Of a stretch of DNA of 42,519 nt, positions 3,731-42,519 are shown in pieces (position 1 is the stretch's first letter; each line of letters begins with the position of its first letter). The position numbers were made by a program, and so were the translations under genes. The notes under the pieces are model-generated. The model made no database searches. It was not told the origin of the DNA and was given only the letters and a program-made list of their open reading frames with translations. Where the stretch lies: assembly GCA_965372385.1 (NCBI GenBank), contig CBDVCD010000001.1, positions 1 through 42,519 on the forward strand, written 5' to 3'. This DNA is from an uncultured Gammaproteobacteria bacterium. GTDB lineage: Bacteria > Pseudomonadota > Gammaproteobacteria > Chromatiales > Chromatiaceae.

Positions 3731-4840
3731 TCACTCATAGCCCGCCATCTCCAGATAACCCCGTCCCAGTACCGCTCCATTCACCTCGTCGCTGACCTCA
3801 ACCGCACCCTCCCAGTAGCGCACGCTGAGATGCATCTCCTGATCGGCAAGCAGGGCTCGAATGCGCCAGGGATGGGCTTCATCCTGCAGCCGAAGCTGCC
3901 ACTCGATGGGATAGCGTCTTGCATCAGACCCCCAATATTTCAACGGGGTAAGCGTGACAAGACTGGAATCTAAATGTATCCGCACACCCTCACTGTCACT
4001 TACGGAACCGGCACTGTGGGAGTCTGTGGCGCCATCTTTGCGCCGCAGTTGGTAGTACATCAGATTGCGCCCATCCTGCAAATGCAAAGAAAACCAGTCC
4101 CAGCCTGTCTGATCGGGGCCAAGAACGCTGGTGCTCCACTCCCGGTCGAACCAGGCCAGACCGCTGACTGGCAGGCTCTCGCCCTGGATCTTCAGGCGGC
4201 CATGAGCCCGTAGACGTGGGATCGAGTAGTAGTAAGAGGCGTTACCGGACTCTGCGCTTTTCTGGCTCAGCCCTGCGTTGCCCTGGAGGATGATGGGGCT
4301 GATCGGAGCAAGTTCAAGGGTCAGATCGAAGCCCTCGGCGGGTAGCCGCAGTCGCCAGTTTTGTTCTCCTTCATCTTCCCACAACTGCCAATCCTCCAGC
4401 CAGACCTTGAAGGGCAGGGCGGTTGCGCCCGCCAGCCCAATACCCTGACGGGCGAAGCGTTCATCGGCCAGGTGTTGACCCGCGGAAAGATCGCTGAGGG
4501 CGGCATGGGCCATCCAGATCTGATGGGTGCGCCAAGCGGATGGACTGTCGATGGACTCCGGCTGCAGGGCAATGCGGAAGAAGGTGACCTGGAAGCCGAA
4601 GGCACGCCCATCTTCGCCCCGCAGATTGCCGGTGATATACCACCACTCGTTGCGGTAGGCCGGATGGGGGCCGTGGTCCTGGGGAAAACTGAAGGGGCGC
4701 ACTTGTGTGGCGCGGGCGAAGCCCTCCAGATCACCATCGCCCAGGGCATCGGTCACCTGGAACTCATCGGGCTCTGGCATGGGCTGGCCGCAGCCAATCA
4801 GCAGCAGGATGAGCAGGAGTAGTGGAGACCAGTGCATCAT
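3731..4840 (-). CDS. AttH/CrtC-like (hydroxyneurosporene-synthase fold) lipoprotein, partner of the FtsX ABC transporter
   Basis: Lipobox LLLIGC, and the motif DHGPHPAYRNEWWYITGNL...FGFQVTFFR typical of AttH-like proteins. Same strand, directly downstream of the permease and ATPase. Confidence 0.7.
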   Translation of the reverse strand: MMHWSPLLLLILLLIGCGQPMPEPDEFQVTDALGDGDLEGFARATQVRPFSFPQDHGPHPAYRNEWWYITGNLRGEDGRAFGFQVTFFRIALQPESIDSPSAWRTHQIWMAHAALSDLSAGQHLADERFARQGIGLAGATALPFKVWLEDWQLWEDEGEQNWRLRLPAEGFDLTLELAPISPIILQGNAGLSQKSAESGNASYYYSIPRLRAHGRLKIQGESLPVSGLAWFDREWSTSVLGPDQTGWDWFSLHLQDGRNLMYYQLRRKDGATDSHSAGSVSDSEGVRIHLDSSLVTLTPLKYWGSDARRYPIEWQLRLQDEAHPWRIRALLADQEMHLSVRYWEGAVEVSDEVNGAVLGRGYLEMAGYE

Positions 4841-4841
4841 C

Positions 4842-4963
4842 CTAGAATCTGCAGTTGGACGGGGTAGCGTGATTCACCCAGTAGACGTGTCGGTCTATCG
4901 AACAAAATACACATGAATTCAACTCGTTAATAGTAGAATGGAGTGGTCAACTGCAGAATCTAG
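4842..4963. mobile_element. 122-bp MITE/ERIC-like palindromic element (family A, 'gcag' subtype) in the permease-attH spacer
   Basis: TIRs are ctagaatctgcagttggac and ggtcaactgcagaatctag (16/19). It is flanked by catcatc and gatcaac. A 60-bp short form lies at 32481-32540. Confidence 0.7.
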
Positions 4964-4970
4964 GATCAAC

Positions 4971-21003: not shown

Positions 21004-21246
21004 ATGCCCGCGTTAACCATAAAAAACATCCCTGACGACCTATACCATGAACTAAAACATGTTGCAGAACAACATCATAGAAGTATTAATAATGAAGTCA
21101 TCATGTGCCTTAAACGCTCTCTTCTGCCTAAAAAGGTATCTCCCGAGGACAGATTAAACGACATTCGCGCTCTTCGGGCACAGATTGCCCCTAATTCCAT
21201 TACTGAAGAAGATATTGAACAAGCCATTAATGACGGCAGACCATGA
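21004..21246 (+). CDS. vapB: VapB-type antitoxin (ribbon-helix-helix, Arc/FitA-like)
   Basis: MPALTIKNIPDDLYHELKHVAEQHHRSINNEV. It overlaps the PIN gene by 4 nt. Confidence 0.75.
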   Translation: MPALTIKNIPDDLYHELKHVAEQHHRSINNEVIMCLKRSLLPKKVSPEDRLNDIRALRAQIAPNSITEEDIEQAINDGRP

Positions 21247-21663
21247 TCGTTGCTGATACAAACATCATTTCATATCTTCTTCTACCCACTTCCTATTCAG
21301 AGTCAGCCGATGCAGCGTACAAACTTGATTCCGATTGGGCAGCTCCACTGCTCTGGAAAAGTGAATTCCGAAATGTTTTAGCGCTATACCTCAGGAGGAA
21401 AATCATTAATCTTGAAAAAGCATTTCAACTTCAAGAAATCGCTGAATCAATCATGACTCAGAACGAATTTGATGTTTCCTCTTATCAAGTGCTTGCGTTA
21501 ATCAATGAGAGTCAATGCTCCTCGTTACGATTGCGAATTTATCGCCCTTGCTCACCACCTCAACACTCCACTTGTTACACAAGATAAAAAGATTTTAAAA
21601 GAATTTCCATCTACGGCGATAACGGTCGCTTACTTTATATCCAGTTACGCGAGCAAGCCCTAA
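21243..21663 (+). pseudogene. vapC: VapC PIN-domain toxin, frameshifted near 21513-21525
   Basis: The N-terminus MIVADTNIISYLL is in frame 0. The conserved C-terminus YDCEFIALAHHLNTPLVTQDKKILKEFP... is readable only in frame +1 and ends at 21661-21663. Confidence 0.7.
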
Positions 21664-21814
21664 CGATCGATGAATATCTGCTTATCCTTGAACAGTTCGG
21701 CATGGGCATGAGTATGGCATTGAAAGACTAAAAGGAGTAGTTGGACCGGCTTACCCCAAAGGTACTTCCTGCGGGGCGCAGAGGGAGCCATATTGTGCCG
21801 ATTTGAGAAGTTAC

Positions 21815-21855
21815 GACTTCAGCTCAGCGTAATCATGAACGGCAGGTCAGCCGCG
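21815..21855 (+). repeat. 41-bp direct repeat, copy 2
   Basis: See 20753-20793. Confidence 0.7.
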
Positions 21856-21926
21856 AAACCAACCATTCAGTTGATTGGTTGGAAAGGAATAAGTAAGAAA
21901 AAGTTAGGTAAAAAGAAGAGGGTATA

Positions 21927-21947
21927 ATATACTACATTGTAGTATAT
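21927..21947 (+). promoter_or_regulatory. candidate parDE operator overlapping a TATAAT -10 box
   Basis: atatactaca-t-tgtagtatat has perfect 10-bp arms. TATAAT is at 21923-21928, and the parD ATG is 27 nt downstream. Confidence 0.5.
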
Positions 21948-21973
21948 CTTCATCTAATTCTTGGAGAACAAAT

Positions 21974-22240
21974 ATGCCAATGGTCAAAAAAAGCATATCG
22001 GTGACTGATCAACAAGACAGTTGGATAAAGGCACAGATTGAAACCGGACATTACGGCAACGAGAGCGAAGTTATCCGAGAGTTAATCCGAGAGCGTCAAA
22101 TTCGAGAGCAAGAAACCCCCGCCGAAATTGAAGCGATCCGCGCCGCGTTGATTGAAGGCGAGAAGAACGGTTTTAGTGATAGCTCTGTAGACGAGATATG
22201 GGAAGAAGCCAGAAAACGCCACAGGGCGAAACATGCCTGA
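21974..22240 (+). CDS. parD: ParD-type antitoxin (RHH, COG3609)
   Basis: KKSISVTDQQDSWIKAQIETGHYGNESEVIRELIR. Confidence 0.8.
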   Translation: MPMVKKSISVTDQQDSWIKAQIETGHYGNESEVIRELIRERQIREQETPAEIEAIRAALIEGEKNGFSDSSVDEIWEEARKRHRAKHA

Positions 22241-22532
22241 TTATCGGCTTGCTGAAAGTGCCAAAGAGGATTTGGTAGTGATTGCACAATATGGCGATGA
22301 GCATTTTGGCGTGGCACAGTCAGACCGATACCGCGACCAGCTCAAGCAACGATTTTCCGTGTTGGCAGACCAGCCAATGCTTTACCCCGCCGTTGAGCAT
22401 ATCCGCGCCGGATACAGGCGTAGCGTGTGCGGGGTGCATTCGATTTATTACCGGATTGAAGGCGAGAGCGTGGAAATCATACGCATTCTGAAACACCAAG
22501 ACGCGACAAAATCCCTATACTCCAGCAGCTAA
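22233..22532 (+). CDS. parE: ParE-family toxin (apparently intact)
   Basis: 99 aa with an 8-nt overlap with parD. YRLAESAKEDL...YRRSVCGVHSIYYRIEGESVEIIRILKHQD. Confidence 0.8.
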   Translation: MPDYRLAESAKEDLVVIAQYGDEHFGVAQSDRYRDQLKQRFSVLADQPMLYPAVEHIRAGYRRSVCGVHSIYYRIEGESVEIIRILKHQDATKSLYSSS

Positions 22533-32339: not shown

Positions 32340-32480
32340 AATTGTTTAACTTATTTAACCTGTTATTCGGAGCAATTAATTTTAAATTGTTTTTAAGGTA
32401 GTTAACAATACTTTTATGTATCGGTTTAAATGCCAGAATCCATCAACTATTTATTACATAGTCATTGATATCTATTCAAC

Positions 32481-32540
32481 CTAGAATCTGCGGTTGGACG
32501 GGGTAGAGTGTAGAATGGAACGGTCAACTGCAGAATCTAG
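32481..32540. mobile_element. 60-bp minimal copy of family A element (essentially two TIRs back to back)
   Basis: ctagaatctgcggttggacggggtagagtg|tagaatggaacggtcaactgcagaatctag. This equals the 4842-4963 copy minus its 62-bp interior. Flanked by attcaac and gttcaac. Confidence 0.7.
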
Positions 32541-32865
32541 GTTCAACAGTTAAGGAAATAGATAATCGCAACATCTGTTCCCTTGTTCAGATAAAGCTAC
32601 AAATAGAATGAGTGATTACAAAGTGAGAAATTTGGCGAGATTGAGATCAGGCTTGCTGGGCTCATAATAGCAAGAATCTATCAGCGAGATGAACAGTCGA
32701 GTCAAAATTCCGTCGCAATACCAATAATCACATAACATACTGAATAACCTGCCTATAATATTCCACACTGTAAAGATAAACCGATCAACTCAGGAAGGTG
32801 ATTCCGCGACCCTGCAATAGATTTATGTTAGCCTGAAATTAAACTTCCACTCAGGGGGAATCCTG

Positions 32866-38017: not shown

Positions 38018-39350
38018 ATGAGTATACAAAGGTTCAAATCCAGCTGTTTCAAGGGCTTGAGGCAACCACAAGGGCATTCTACTCCAAGCAAATCCATTCG
38101 CTTGCTGCGCCTCAGCTTACTCGTCCTTGCCCTGGGACTGATGGTGTCGCACCTGACTCTGGTCATGGCCAAGAACCAGGACAGCGACAACAGGGGCAAG
38201 CCGGTACCATCCACCAATCCGGTAATATCCACCAATGTCGAGATTTACGATGACGGCGCGAGTGGCACCGGCGGTGATTGCAGCACCGGAACAAATCCGA
38301 TCGGCAGCTGGGACGCCTCCAGCAAGACCTGCACCCTGATCCGGGACGTCGATGCCGCAATCCTCATCCACGACCCCAATAATACACAGTTCGGTGTGAC
38401 ACTCGACGGTGACGAATATGCGGTCAACCTGCCCCAGGATGGCTCGGTCACGATAGAAGGAAGCAATCACACCCTCGAAGATCTGACCATCAATGGATAT
38501 TCTGCGGATGAGTCTTCCGGCGCTGGGGTCTATCTGTCTGATGCCTATTCAGTCACCGTAACTGACATTGAGGTGACGAATACTGTAGTGGGCATCACCT
38601 TTCATGCCTCCATGAACAGCATCGTCAGCGACAGCACCTTTTCCGGGGTTCGAACCGGCGCCAATCTTAATGGCACCTACCACCAGTATTACTGCGAAGA
38701 AGAGGGCTACCTCCCTTACTGTGGGGCCAGCAACAATACCCTTGAGAACAACACCTTCTCGCACAACTCGACTGATCATGATGGTTATGGCATCTATTTA
38801 GGTTTCGCAGCCCGGGACAATACCATCAGGGGCAACACCATCTCCGGTTTCAATTAGGCTATGTCTGCGTTAAGTGTTGGAACAAATCTAACCTCTTGAT
38901 TTTTCACGACCTACCTTTAGTTTGCAATTTACTTTAATTTCAATAAGTTAGTGTCACTTGAAATCGAAATCAACACTTAACGCACACATAGCCTTCAATT
39001 ATGGGGTGTACATACCTGACTGGTATTGTTCCTACATCTATACCAGCTATTCATCCTGTCAGGATGGCAACACTGTCTATCAGAACAGCTTCATAGACAA
39101 TTTCATCGACGACTACACCACCAGTTTCAAAACACAGATCTATGCCGACTGGGGCTACACGACCACCGTCTTCAATCTGGATGCGCCTGACGGCGGCAAC
39201 TACTTCAATGATTTCGATGAGCCGGCCGAGGGCTGCGAAGATGCCAATGGCGATGGTTTCTGTGACATCTGCTATTACGGCAAGAATACCTACGACTGTT
39301 TGCCATGGACAACAGAGGAGGGCTGGTCACCCGAAGATGATGACGATTAG
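38018..39350 (+). pseudogene. right-handed parallel beta-helix (PbH1/NosD-like) repeat protein gene, interrupted by a MITE
   Basis: ORFs 38018-38857 and 38994-39350. Repeats of the form NTxxxNxxxG (LEDLTINGY, VTVTDIEVTNTVVGITF, NNTLENNTFSHN, DNTIRGNTISGFN). Deleting 38857-39001 fuses them as ...ISGFNYGVYIPDW.... Confidence 0.75.
38857..38993. mobile_element. 137-bp MITE (family B) with 23-bp TIRs and an 8-bp TTCAATTA target-site duplication
   Basis: TIR-L ggctatgtctgcgttaagtgttg and TIR-R caacacttaacgcacacatagcc (22/23). TSD copies at 38849-38856 and 38994-39001. AT-rich interior with no ORF. Confidence 0.85.
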
Positions 39351-39374
39351 CACGAGTACTCCTTAAGGTACGAC

Positions 39375-39400
39375 TAATAGTGGTCAACTGAGGATTTTAG
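39375..39400. repeat. solo right end of family A element ('gagg' subtype)
   Basis: taatagtggtcaactgaggattttag followed by gttcaat. It matches the right end at 41713-41731. I found no left end upstream. Confidence 0.55.
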
Positions 39401-39797
39401 GTTCAATGAAGGGTGGGCATTGCCCACTATTACAATGATAGATCGAGAGGTATTGGGTGGGCTGTGCCCAGCCTACTTGATCTATCTGGAATTCAATCAT
39501 AGTGGATTCCAAAAACAGCTCATGAATTTCGTTTTGTGCTGTATTTTATCGCGAAATAAAGCTTCAGGACGCCGCCTGACTCCCACCATTAAACGGTCCC
39601 GCTTGCGCCTAACGGGGTAGGGGCCGCACAATTTTCCGAACGCCACAGCCAGCGATGACATACCGTCCAGGCATAAAAATAACGATTCGTATTCGAAGCT
39701 GTACTCACTCCGCGAACCACTTATTTTTCCGTTTGGACCGCGACATCCGCCCAACTGTGGCCTCACTGCTCTCTGACTGAGACACGGGGTAGACAGG

Positions 39798-40859
39798 ATG
39801 CAGATAACCGGCATGCAATGGGGCGCAAAGCTCCTCAATTATGTGGACTTTCCCACTTCAGAGGTGCTGGGGCCGGAAGCCACCAGTGAACAGAACAAGG
39901 ACCTCATCGACCGCTATGGCATGAGCACCCTGGAGTTGAATCCGATCCGCATGATGCCGAAAAAAGGCCGGCTGATCCCGGTGGCCTGTGACTTCAAGTG
40001 CGCCTTCGACACCGACACCCCGCCTGGAAGCGGCTGGAGCTGCCTGCCAGCCTGGACTCCTCCAACTACTCCGATTTCGAGCTGGAGGTGAACGAACTGC
40101 GCACCTATCAGGGCCAGTCGAATGTGTTCGTCACCAACGAGCTGGGCTCGGTCACCGCCATGACCTTTGGCGGGGGTGCCAACGCCCTGGTCACCGAACT
40201 GCTCGGTGAGGCGGGCAGCATCTCCTCGGATTTCGGCGGCAACCCCCCTTACGAGAAGATGTATGAGATCAGCCGCATCGTCTACAAGCACTGGCTGGAT
40301 CAGAGCAACGTGCTGTTCATCATCGGCGGCAAGGCCAACAACACCGACATCTACACTACCTTCCGAGCGATGGCGGAGGCCCTGCGGGACTACTTCAACA
40401 GCCATGTCTATTCCGGTGGCAACGTGGTGTGCGGCACCATGCCAGGACGCTCCGGTGCGGTGCTGAAGACCGAGCTGGGGGACATCCCGGTCTACAATTC
40501 GGTGGTGGAGGCCCTGGAGGCTGACCACCACTTCAACGTAGCAGTGGTTCATGGAGAAGTTCGGCGTGGACGGCATCTATACGGCCGATAATCCAGTCTG
40601 CTCCACCAAGGGCGCGGTAGTAACCAATATTGCCGATATACCGACCGCCATGACTGCGGTCATGGCGCTGAATCAGGCCACACCCGATTTCGACTCCAGG
40701 GGCGATCTCTCCCTGAAGTGCTGGTTTGCCGATGATCTTGGGGACCTACTACTACCGCCCGAGCTGGATATTCAGCCGGTGCAGGCGGTCTCCCCCTATG
40801 GCGAACAGATCAAACTGGTGAACGATCAGATAGGGGTATCTTCCCCCGCCAAAGCATGA
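39798..40859 (+). pseudogene. ATP-citrate-lyase beta / succinyl-CoA-synthetase-beta-like gene, 5'-truncated with two frameshifts
   Basis: Aligns with my memory of ACLY: STLELNPI..., then FVTNELGSVTAMTFGGGANALVTELLG...DFGGNPPYEKMYEISRIV...LFIIGGKANNTDIYTTFRAMAEALRDYF. Frame changes occur near 40018-40021 (a C4 run) and 40542-40550. The ATP-grasp N-terminal ~200 aa are absent, and frame 0 has a stop at 39774. Confidence 0.7.
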
Positions 40860-42104
40860 AGGATGCCTCAGGCGCCTCCATGATGGACCCAAAGAGCCAG
40901 ATCACCCGCCTGTTCGGGATCAGTGTCCTGGATGTGGCTACCCACTCCTATGAGGATAATCTGGTGCTCTCCCTGATTCGGGAATATCCCGACAGCAACA
41001 GCCGCGCCCTCGCCAACGTCGCGCTGAATGCCTATATCAACCTGCACGACACACCCATGCTCACGGCGGCCTATGCAGCGCGCCAAGCGGGTAACAGCCC
41101 GAATACATCACTCTGCGCCGCCCTGAGCATCATTGGCCCAGGCATGGTGGCGGGTGCTAGAGAGAGCGCCCGGGCAATGCTCGACCTGTTTCGAAAATCC
41201 GGTCTTGCTGACCCGGCGGATGAGGAGTTCGATCTGCAACCCCTGCTCCAGCAAACCCAGGAGGAAGAGGCCATCGCCCATTTCATCGGCAGCGAAGAGG
41301 ATGAACGCGCCAGGATCATGCTCGACGGCACCGCCGCGCGGGGGGCGAACTCTGTGTTCCTGCGTTACCTTCAGCTATTGCAGCAGGAAACCAACAGCTT
41401 CATCAGCGCCGACGCCGTACTGGCGGCGATCTGTTGCCATCTGGCCTGGAAACCTCTGCTGCACAAACGGCTCTCGGTCACCACGCTGTTCAACCTAGAA
41501 ACCTCAGTTGAACACCGTGAAGGGTGCGCTTGTGGTGGTGCAGGGCAAGGCACAACGACGCGGAATAGTTGTTCTATTGCAAGGAGTTGTAACGCAGGCT
41601 TGCGCCGCCACAAGCGTGCCATTCGCAGTGTAGCGTTGCTCACCCAATAGGTGAAACCTTTCGATACTGATAAAAAACTTATTTTTTCAAAGCGATTAAC
41701 GCAGTACATAGCGGTCAACTGAGGATTCTAGGTTCAACATGCCCTGGCATCTGCGCATCTTCTCCGCCGCTTTGGGGGCCTCGGTGCGTAGCGAACGCCA
41801 GACCGAAACCTCTTTTGGTGGAGTTTTGATGGAAGAGCTGGTCAAGGCCCTGGCCAGCTACGGGGTAAGCCGCAACATCTATTGCGTCAACATCGACGCG
41901 GTGATCGCGGTGATCCTGCTGAAGATGTTATGGCGACCCTTCGTGGCGGGTGAGATCGACGAGCAGTTCCTGGAGTATGGCGCCTTCACCACCTTCGTCT
42001 ACGGACGTATGGTGGGCGAGGCGGCGGAGATCGAAGACCACACCAACCGTGGCCACAATATGGATACCCGCACCCCAGCCAGTCAGTGCCGGTTTGTCAA
42101 TTAG
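40856..42104 (+). pseudogene. citrate-synthase-like / citryl-CoA-lyase-like domain gene (ACL C-terminal-domain homologue), interrupted by a MITE
   Basis: ORFs 40856-41650 and 41739-42104. The tail NIYCVNIDAVIAVILLKML...GAFTTFVYGRMVGEAAEIEDH resembles the ACLY/citrate-synthase C-terminus. Removing 41495-41738 gives one 334-codon ORF. The ATGA overlap with the upstream gene suggests coupling. Confidence 0.65.
41495..41731. mobile_element. 237-bp MITE (family A, 'gagg' subtype) with 19-bp TIRs, flanked by direct GTTCAAC copies
   Basis: TIR-L ctagaaacctcagttgaac and TIR-R ggtcaactgaggattctag (17/19). GTTCAAC at 41488-41494 and 41732-41738. There is an internal stem gcgcttgtggtggtgcagg/cttgcgccgccacaagcg. 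Confidence 0.8.
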
Positions 42105-42235
42105 CCTCCCCCCTGACAGGAGGGAGGTATTAAGTGTTTTCTCCCTGACAGAGCGAGGTATTAAGTTCCTCCCCCCTCGGCAGGGGGTGGCAAAAAAGTC
42201 CCTTCCCCCTTGCAGGGGGGAGGTTAGGAGGGGGG
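42105..42235. repeat. tandem array of four ~30-bp C-run/G-run hairpin units (REP/BIME-like)
   Basis: Units: cctcccccctgacaggagggagg, tccctgacagagcgagg, ccccctcggcaggggg, cccccttgcagggggg. The first two are each followed by gtattaagt. Confidence 0.7.
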
Positions 42236-42246
42236 TAATCTTTCAC

Positions 42247-42519
42247 TCAATGCGACGGAATAAACTGATAGCGGTGCACCATGTGGACAAAATCCTGCAA
42301 GGCTTTGATGTTGGTCGCCTCAGCCTGCGCACACCACTGCCGCAGGGCCTCCAGCCGTATCCCATGACTTGACGCCTTCTGCTCCCAGATCTCATGCAGT
42401 CGCAACTTGAATTGATAGACGGTGGCAAGTACTGAGCTCTGATCCAGCACCTCACCCAGCCTGATGCGTTCAACATCACTCAAAAGTACCGTCTCCCGCC
42501 GCGCCATCCGCTGGGCATA
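42247..42519 (-). CDS. C-terminal part of a protein running off the window. It resembles the C-terminal extension I associate with proteobacterial fatty-acid desaturase-family proteins (low certainty).
   Basis: The frame stays open to the window edge (YAQRMARRETVLL...). The motif LRQWCAQAEATNIKALQDF is recalled from memory only. Confidence 0.4.
   Translation of the reverse strand, partial: YAQRMARRETVLLSDVERIRLGEVLDQSSVLATVYQFKLRLHEIWEQKASSHGIRLEALRQWCAQAEATNIKALQDFVHMVHRYQFIPSH

Follow-up and report, generated by a model that had tools for sequence, protein, structure and literature searches.

Here, we identify a 239-nt miniature inverted-repeat transposable element (MITE) in the alpha-subunit gene of an ATP-citrate lyase (ACL) operon of an uncultured member of the Chromatiaceae (Gammaproteobacteria; assembly GCA_965372385.1, contig CBDVCD010000001.1). 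The stretch analysed, here called the window, comprises 42,519 nucleotides. Very probably, the MITE inserted at G-TTCAA-C in the citrate-synthase-like 3′ part of this gene, and the host gene is itself a relic, so that the locus records gene decay and not a genetic switch. The insertion can be read against an unoccupied site in the closest homologue and against a family of related elements, which fixes the limits of the element and the size of its target-site duplication. The family also carries a covarying hairpin, which we describe alongside the insertion.

Results

Several lines of evidence identify the insert as a MITE-type, non-autonomous transposon insertion. First, its ends are inverted repeats. 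A preliminary description of this DNA had proposed an insertion of this kind from inverted ends lying between direct copies of GTTCAAC, and these features are present as reported: the copies flank a 237-nt stretch (41495-41731), whose inner ends (41495-41513, CTAGAAACCTCAGTTGAAC, against the reverse complement of 41713-41731) are identical at 17 of 19 positions. Comparison with the family places the true ends one base further out on each side, at C41494 and G41732, which gives an element of 239 nt with a 20-nt terminal inverted repeat matching at 18 of 20 positions. At up to three mismatches, the inverted end is matched three times in the window, where 100 shuffles gave an expectation of 0.00. 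The element has no transposase gene, the open reading frames (ORFs) inside it being only 41 and 47 aa long, and a consensus scan of the 239 nt found neither a promoter nor a terminator.

Second, the frame arithmetic is exact. Removal of 244 nt (239 of the element plus 5 of the duplication, equal to 237 plus 7) fuses the ORFs 40856-41650 and 41739-42104 into one of 334 aa, which reads ...RLSVTTLFN/MPWHLRIF... across the DNA junction ...CTGTTCAAC/ATGCCC.... As had been noted, ttc-aac is codon-aligned in both flanking ORFs, and removal of 237 or 251 nt instead leads to stop codons. The insertion itself brings an in-frame stop at 41648-41650.

Third, the insert is absent from related genes. A search with the restored ORF returned 372 homologues, mostly of 450-585 aa, and no homologue has a counterpart of 41495-41731. 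The rejoined FN/MP junction is colinear and gap-free against 11 aligned homologues, which read TL.N[LMI]PWHLR at this place and in which P215 and W216 are invariant. The closest homologue, on a JGI metagenome contig (L002; 86-89% DNA identity), contains the site once and without the insert, as CTGGTCAATATTCCC; window positions 41408-41493 align with 66-151 of this contig and 41734-41842 with 148-256, so that the two segments overlap only by TCAA. Every check that the preliminary description had set for itself comes out on the side of an insertion.

Fourth, the insert is found in a second assembly. A 3060-nt public record (L001) is 100% identical to window positions 39045-42104, with the insert and all of the lesions described below. 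That a repeat was misplaced into the gene during assembly is for this reason highly improbable; copies of the family often lie at contig ends in loci from metagenome-assembled genomes (MAGs), and the family therefore does disturb assemblies, but the independent record has the same insert and lesions, and a chimeric join would not yield a perfect duplication at the target that the family prefers.

The family defines the limits of the element and its target. With CTARAAWCCTCAGTTGAMC as the query, 185,579 species-representative genomes yielded at least 116 loci (L004-L119), nearly all in MAGs that are labelled Beta- or Gammaproteobacteria or fit these classes; the taxa among the loci listed include Nitrosomonas, Sulfuricella, Thiobacillus, Hydrogenophilales, Rhodocyclaceae, Gallionellales, Sedimenticola and Candidatus Thiodiazotropha. 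The scan demanded CCTCAG; it therefore under-samples the family and could have missed an autonomous element. Pairing of ends yielded 71 complete elements among the matches listed, with a modal length of 232-235 nt and the limits C-CTAG...CTAG-G (C..G termini in 65). The closest complete relative among these matches is a copy in a Candidatus Thiodiazotropha MAG (L042; 88.7% identity). The 5 bp on either side repeat exactly and directly in 43 of the 71 copies and with one base changed in 17, and in no copy do they form an inverted repeat; by our own calculation, flanks that were merely constrained to WTNAW would be identical by chance in ~6% of cases. All 43 perfect duplications follow W-T-N-A-W, mostly as TTNAA or ATNAT, and the bases outside these 5 bp are unconstrained.

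The target-site duplication is thus 5 bp at WTNAW plus the terminal C and G of the element, and not 7 bp as first proposed. The repeat looks 7 bp long because G41488 and C41738, which belong to the gene, are by chance the same as the terminal G and C of the element. Conversely, one might assign GTT-N-AAC to the inverted repeat, in which case the element would measure ~251 nt and would have no target duplication. The inverted repeat detected here (I2) does extend over 25 nt at 92%, across the GTTCAAC copies, and a third end in the window is likewise followed by GTTCAA. However, the central base N is a direct copy in 43 of the 71 elements and complementary in 0; the left TTCAAC encodes a conserved F-N, with the Asn nearly invariant and GTCAAT in its place in L002; and removal of 251 nt breaks the frame. 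We therefore consider this assignment exceedingly unlikely, as the preliminary description had also argued. An integron attC site and a XerC/D-type site were considered for the insert and dropped, as a direct 5-bp duplication fits neither.

Besides the copy in the ACL gene, the window holds two further complete family members and one solo end, that is, three complete copies and the solo end in total (Table 1). The 124-nt and 62-nt copies have the deletion junction GGACGGGGTAG in common although their sites and duplications are separate. At its left end, the 124-nt copy directly adjoins the start codon of a CrtC-like ORF (3731-4840, minus strand), the ATG of which lies inside the ATCAT duplication. 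Among the 71 complete copies, 18 (e.g., L014, L028, L066 and L108) have an ATNAT duplication followed by G, which places an ATG ~11 nt 3′ of the right-end GAGG, and insertions exactly at start codons seem to be common or well tolerated. Most family copies are apparently intergenic in a rough ORF-spanning screen. Further end subfamilies, CCGCAG and CGGCAG/CGGCGG (L050 100-473, L082 5573-5859 and L083 302-572), keep CCTAGAA and GTTGRMC, while the middle of the end varies.

Directly after the left end, the element contains a 120-nt hairpin (window 41512-41631) that is conserved in the family. In an alignment of 43 full-length members (A2), RNAalifold and a count of pairs gave 33 pairs, 28 of which have changes on both sides. 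Paired cells amount to 93%, falling to 36-42% if the partners are shifted by one to three columns; in 500 shuffles, values as high as those observed never occurred. The apex motifs GGCAAGGC, CAAGGAGTTG.AACGCAG, CAAGGAG and GCAACG are conserved. The fold z is -8.6 for the element, and the window copy folds at -108.9 kcal/mol on the plus strand and -89.5 on the minus strand. Because G.U pairs outnumber A.C pairs in the core of the hairpin (242 against 44) and the plus-strand energy is lower, the fold is favoured on one strand, and for the window copy this is the gene's sense strand. The elements show no bias in orientation with respect to the long ORFs next to them (12 −,−; 8 +,+; 6 +,−; 6 −,+). 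Insertion does not require the hairpin: the two hairpin-less copies in the window share one junction yet have their own sites and duplications. A small ORF in the hairpin (AAGGAG...ATG) was rejected: its ATG is not conserved, and the column covaries as part of a stem. Several family members have a WATCAANNNNTTR-like motif in the A/T-rich segment, which by eye resembles a site for integration host factor.

A structure of this stability raises the question of whether the transcript could lose the insert by self-splicing, as with an intron, or in a similar way, leaving the product uninterrupted. The strong fold would suit such an element, and the register U41487/G41488...G41731, read from the sequence, agrees with the group I convention that a U precedes the intron and a G closes it. 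Nevertheless, Rfam 15 gave no relevant match on the whole window at the gathering score and none at permissive E-values for the element copy (E up to 10) or for family members in eight other loci (E up to 1). Moreover, a 5-bp duplication around terminal inverted repeats is a signature of transposition, some copies have moved without having the hairpin, the elements show no preferred orientation towards the genes around them, and most copies apparently lie between genes. We regard the chance that the insert is spliced out as negligible, and the evidence continues to favour insertion by transposition.

The host is the citrate-synthase-like (citryl-CoA-lyase) part of the ACL alpha subunit. Pfam Citrate_bind matches the upstream ORF 39998-40591, the homologues carry PF00285, and a related operon (L003) has the order ATP-grasp_2, Citrate_bind, CoA_binding plus Succ_CoA_lig and then the homologue of the host protein, in a frameshift-fragmented form. 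In another locus (L120), the operon is intact, with two long uninterrupted frames of 467 and 952 codons, and the remnants in the window have 52-87% amino-acid identity per segment to its proteins. The restored 334-aa ORF has no Pfam match.

Lesions were mapped by blastn and tblastn against L003 and L120, plus L002 (Table 1). The MITE is accompanied by four deletions, which together halve the operon and all of which show short homology at their junctions, and by two frameshifts. Because homologues are continuous across the -1 frameshift at ~40836, the ATG at 40856 is an internal Met. The deletion within the 3′ remnant was placed by alignment of window positions 41734-41842 with 148-256 of L002 and of 41838-42104 with 798-1064, and in the protein alignment ~197 columns are missing from the host remnant. 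It removes 182 codons of the catalytic core, a stretch present in all aligned full-length homologues and including the AHGGNG and NHPVFKG segments. From known motifs, we take these segments to represent the two catalytic histidines of citrate synthases. A continuous ORF with CoA-ligase and citrate-synthase-like domains was not encountered, the alpha remnant holding the ~590-bp and 546-bp deletions, a -1 frameshift and the MITE. Judged from these lesions, the host gene is a non-functional relic.

These lesions bear on a further alternative, namely, that GTTCAAC is a true 7-bp duplication and that the gene is otherwise intact, being off with the MITE in place and on after its precise excision. 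The 7-bp direct repeat is exact, removal of 244 nt restores the frame, and it is generally known that a 7-bp direct repeat together with a strong palindrome favours precise excision of the slippage type. But the flanks of the family show a 5-bp duplication with unconstrained bases outside it, the restored ORF lacks 182 codons with both the AHGGNG and the NHPVFKG segments, and five more lesions lie upstream of the MITE. This alternative is thus very unlikely.

The claims of the preliminary description about the host had mixed outcomes. Its assignment to a citrate-cleavage gene holds. By contrast, the reversible on/off switch that it considered is excluded for the present allele because precise excision would leave six disabling lesions, the four deletions and two frameshifts. 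Its third claim, that the insertion is recent, stands in part. In the 150 codons around the insert, dN/dS (the ratio of nonsynonymous to synonymous substitution rates) is 0.074 and dS is 0.76 relative to L002, the closest intact homologue. Nearly all of the divergence therefore accumulated under purifying selection, from which it is reasonable to regard the decay of the operon as a whole as recent; however, this argument is not specific to the MITE.

Table 1. Position of the MITE, its parts and relatives, and the lesions of the ACL operon in the window
Feature	Position	Strand	Remarks
Operon relic 5′ of the insertion	39798..41493	+	Beta remnants, then alpha remnants
~441-bp deletion	~39899-39921	+	Beta subunit
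-1 frameshift	~40022	+	
~435-bp deletion	~40400	+	Beta and alpha remnants joined
~590-bp deletion	~40545	+	CoA-ligase part
-1 frameshift	~40836	+	Homologues continuous there: ...GVLFPRQSMKDASG...
MITE insertion, +244 nt	41494-41732		
546-bp in-frame deletion	41838-41842	+	CTGGT microhomology
3′ alpha remnant (citrate-synthase-like module)	41738..42104	+	Contains the 546-bp deletion
GTTCAAC direct copies	41488-41494 and 41732-41738		Flank the 237-nt stretch 41495-41731
Left duplication copy TTCAA	41489..41493	.	Gene-native, part of the F-N codons
Left terminal inverted repeat CCTAGAAACCTCAGTTGAAC	41494..41513	+	Inverted-repeat search, family ends
Long imperfect hairpin domain	41512..41631	+	Basal stem of ~33 pairs; inverted repeat I1, RNAalifold, pair counts
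Near-invariant GTAGCG	41630-41635	+	5′ of the small hairpin
Small conserved hairpin CTCACC-loop-GGTGA	41639..41655	+	Alignment A2; helix 7, 74% paired, 3 covarying pairs
Variable A/T-rich segment	41656..41712	+	Alignment A2; before the right end
Right terminal inverted repeat, CCTAGAATCCTCAGTTGACC on the minus strand	41713..41732	-	
Right duplication copy TTCAA	41733..41737	.	
Second family member, 124 nt	4841..4964	+	CTGCAG end variant, no hairpin, duplication ATCAT/ATCAA
Third family member, 62 nt	32480..32541	+	CTGCAG end variant, two ends and little else, no hairpin, duplication TTCAA/TTCAA
Solo right end, 20 nt, CCTAAAATCCTCAGTTGACC, then TTCAA	39382..39401	-	Truncated (39382-39406 with the TTCAA); flanked by the NosD-like gene and the ACL relic

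The surroundings of the relic contain other mobile and repeated sequences. An unrelated MITE of 137 nt (38857-38993, within 38849-39001) has 23-nt ends, GGCTATGTCTGCGTTAAGTGTTG, that match at 22 of 23 positions. Flanked by the 8-bp duplication TTCAATTA and present once in the window, it interrupts a NosD/beta-helix gene 2.5 kb upstream of the MITE in the ACL gene, and removal of 145 nt rejoins the ORFs 38018-38857 and 38958-39350 in frame. At 42105-42235, four G/C-rich hairpin units of the form CCTCCC...GGGAGG, two of them followed by GTATTAAGT, sit between the stop codon of the ACL remnant and a fragment of an ISL3-family transposase (42247-42507, minus strand) that runs off the end of the contig. 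Further away, a cluster of small ORFs (21004-22532), by eye toxin-antitoxin pairs, includes a PIN/VapC-like toxin ORF (21243-21663; also by eye) that is apparently frameshifted, a 114-aa ORF overlapping one of 52 aa.

Discussion

The sequences compared show the anatomy of the element, its duplication, the target rule, the empty site and the other lesions; the transposase family and the order in which the events took place are what we infer from them. Most likely, the transposase would come from the IS1380 family, to which ISEcp1 and IS1247 belong. The MITE ends read CCTAGA... and share with these elements a beginning of the form CCTAGA/CCTAAA, and the duplication is 5 bp in both, within the 4-5 bp expected of an IS1380-family derivative. 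ISEcp1 has the left end CCTAGATTCTACGT and generates 5-bp duplications (PMC6061673), and the duplication of IS1247 is 5 bp as well (PMC3281130). We confirmed the ends of ISEcp1 in plasmid pIP843, where the element measures 1656 bp, as CCTAGATTCTACGT on the left and, in reverse complement, CCTAAATTCCACGT on the right. Over the first 14 positions, the ends in the window agree with them at 8-11, most closely as CCTAGATTCTGCAG in the 124-nt and 62-nt copies. The likeness has limits, in that the similarity to the ISEcp1 ends fades beyond ~12 nt and no IS1380-type transposase was found with the ends of the MITE. We know of no 120-nt hairpin in ISEcp1.

We suggest that a DDE transposase acting in trans would bind the 20-bp ends (CCTAGAAWCCTCAGTTGRMC) and would cut the palindromic W-T-N-A-W target with a stagger of 5 bp. 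Repair of the resulting gaps would then produce the 5-bp TTCAA duplication. The MITE would be one event within a recent burst of gene decay.

Several observations weigh against this account. First, the part of sequence space covered by ~130 ends, PLSDB and IMG/VR yielded no autonomous partner bounded by such ends. None of the ~130 ends examined has a transposase next to it, and no transposase-like ORF of ≥250 aa lies inward of the unpaired ends; all-against-all clustering of the ORFs of ≥200 aa from 116 loci gave only housekeeping families and no transposase-like protein that recurs across loci; and neither the PLSDB plasmids, queried with two different copies, nor IMG/VR returned a match to the family. 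A tblastn search of plasmids with the ISEcp1 transposase gave matches dominated by ISEcp1 itself. Because no partner was found, the link to IS1380 consists in the similarity of the ends and the length of the duplication. Second, the duplications quoted for ISEcp1 (ACTCA, TAATA and TAAGA; PMC6061673) follow no WTNAW restriction, unlike those of the MITE family. Third, a scan of metagenomes for the codons of TTLFNMPWHLR found no empty-site allele of the same species, and a separate, protein-based metagenome scan gave only more distant homologues. As a consequence, the sequences do not place the insertion before or after the other lesions.

The insertion is of an ordinary kind. The family, with its strict WTNAW targeting, IS1380-like ends and covarying, strand-specific hairpin, is found in many genera, lacks an Rfam entry and is a more interesting by-product of the analysis; its hairpin is a candidate for functional tests. 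Tentatively, and with more doubt than confidence, we propose that this MITE lineage, spread across many genera of Beta- and Gammaproteobacteria, carries a hairpin that is selected in single-stranded form on one strand, as a mobile RNA or single-stranded DNA module serving the element itself. Its dispensability for insertion and its indifference to the orientation of neighbouring genes would point to such a module, and it would not be a passive palindrome. We lean towards a function in how the element spreads or is controlled, which might be to boost mobilisation or to control the partner transposase. Self-correction of the palindrome at the DNA level is a possible alternative.

For the genome, the consequences are practical. 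This copy of the operon for ACL, the key enzyme of the reverse tricarboxylic acid cycle, is dead and should not be counted as capacity for carbon fixation, and for annotation the split ORFs 40856-41650 and 41739-42104 are fragments of a pseudogene. The neighbourhood is in active decay, with the second, unrelated MITE splitting the NosD-like gene upstream of the ACL relic. For other genomes, the family provides a set of rules, i.e., 20-bp ends beginning with CCTAG, a strict WTNAW target, a 5-bp duplication and a length of ~234 nt, and IS1380-type transposases are a concrete lead to the missing partner. The searchable literature, queried with the end sequence and with MITE together with the host genera, gave no description of this family.

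Compared with ATP-citrate lyase itself (AclB/AclA, in the long-alpha form of L120), the remnants match both subunits, the beta subunit with its ATP-grasp and citrate-binding parts and the alpha subunit with its CoA-ligase and citrate-synthase-like parts; however, about half of the coding sequence is left, and the frames are broken in several places. Among small mobile elements, the Tn3-derived inverted-repeat miniature elements (TIMEs) also have a 5-bp duplication, A/T-rich targets and a length of a few hundred bp. Tn3-family ends are ~38 bp long and begin with GGGG, whereas those of the MITE are 20 bp long and begin with CCTAG, and we treat a short shared CTCAGTKGAAC stretch as coincidence. 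Bacterial MITEs such as the Correia elements (NEMIS) of Neisseria, ERIC and RUP are likewise small, non-coding and multicopy, have terminal inverted repeats and a duplication, and can fold into a long hairpin if transcribed. Correia, ERIC and RUP elements duplicate TA. By contrast, the family described here duplicates 5 bp at WTNAW, spans many genera of two classes and keeps its hairpin by compensatory changes and not by sequence identity alone.

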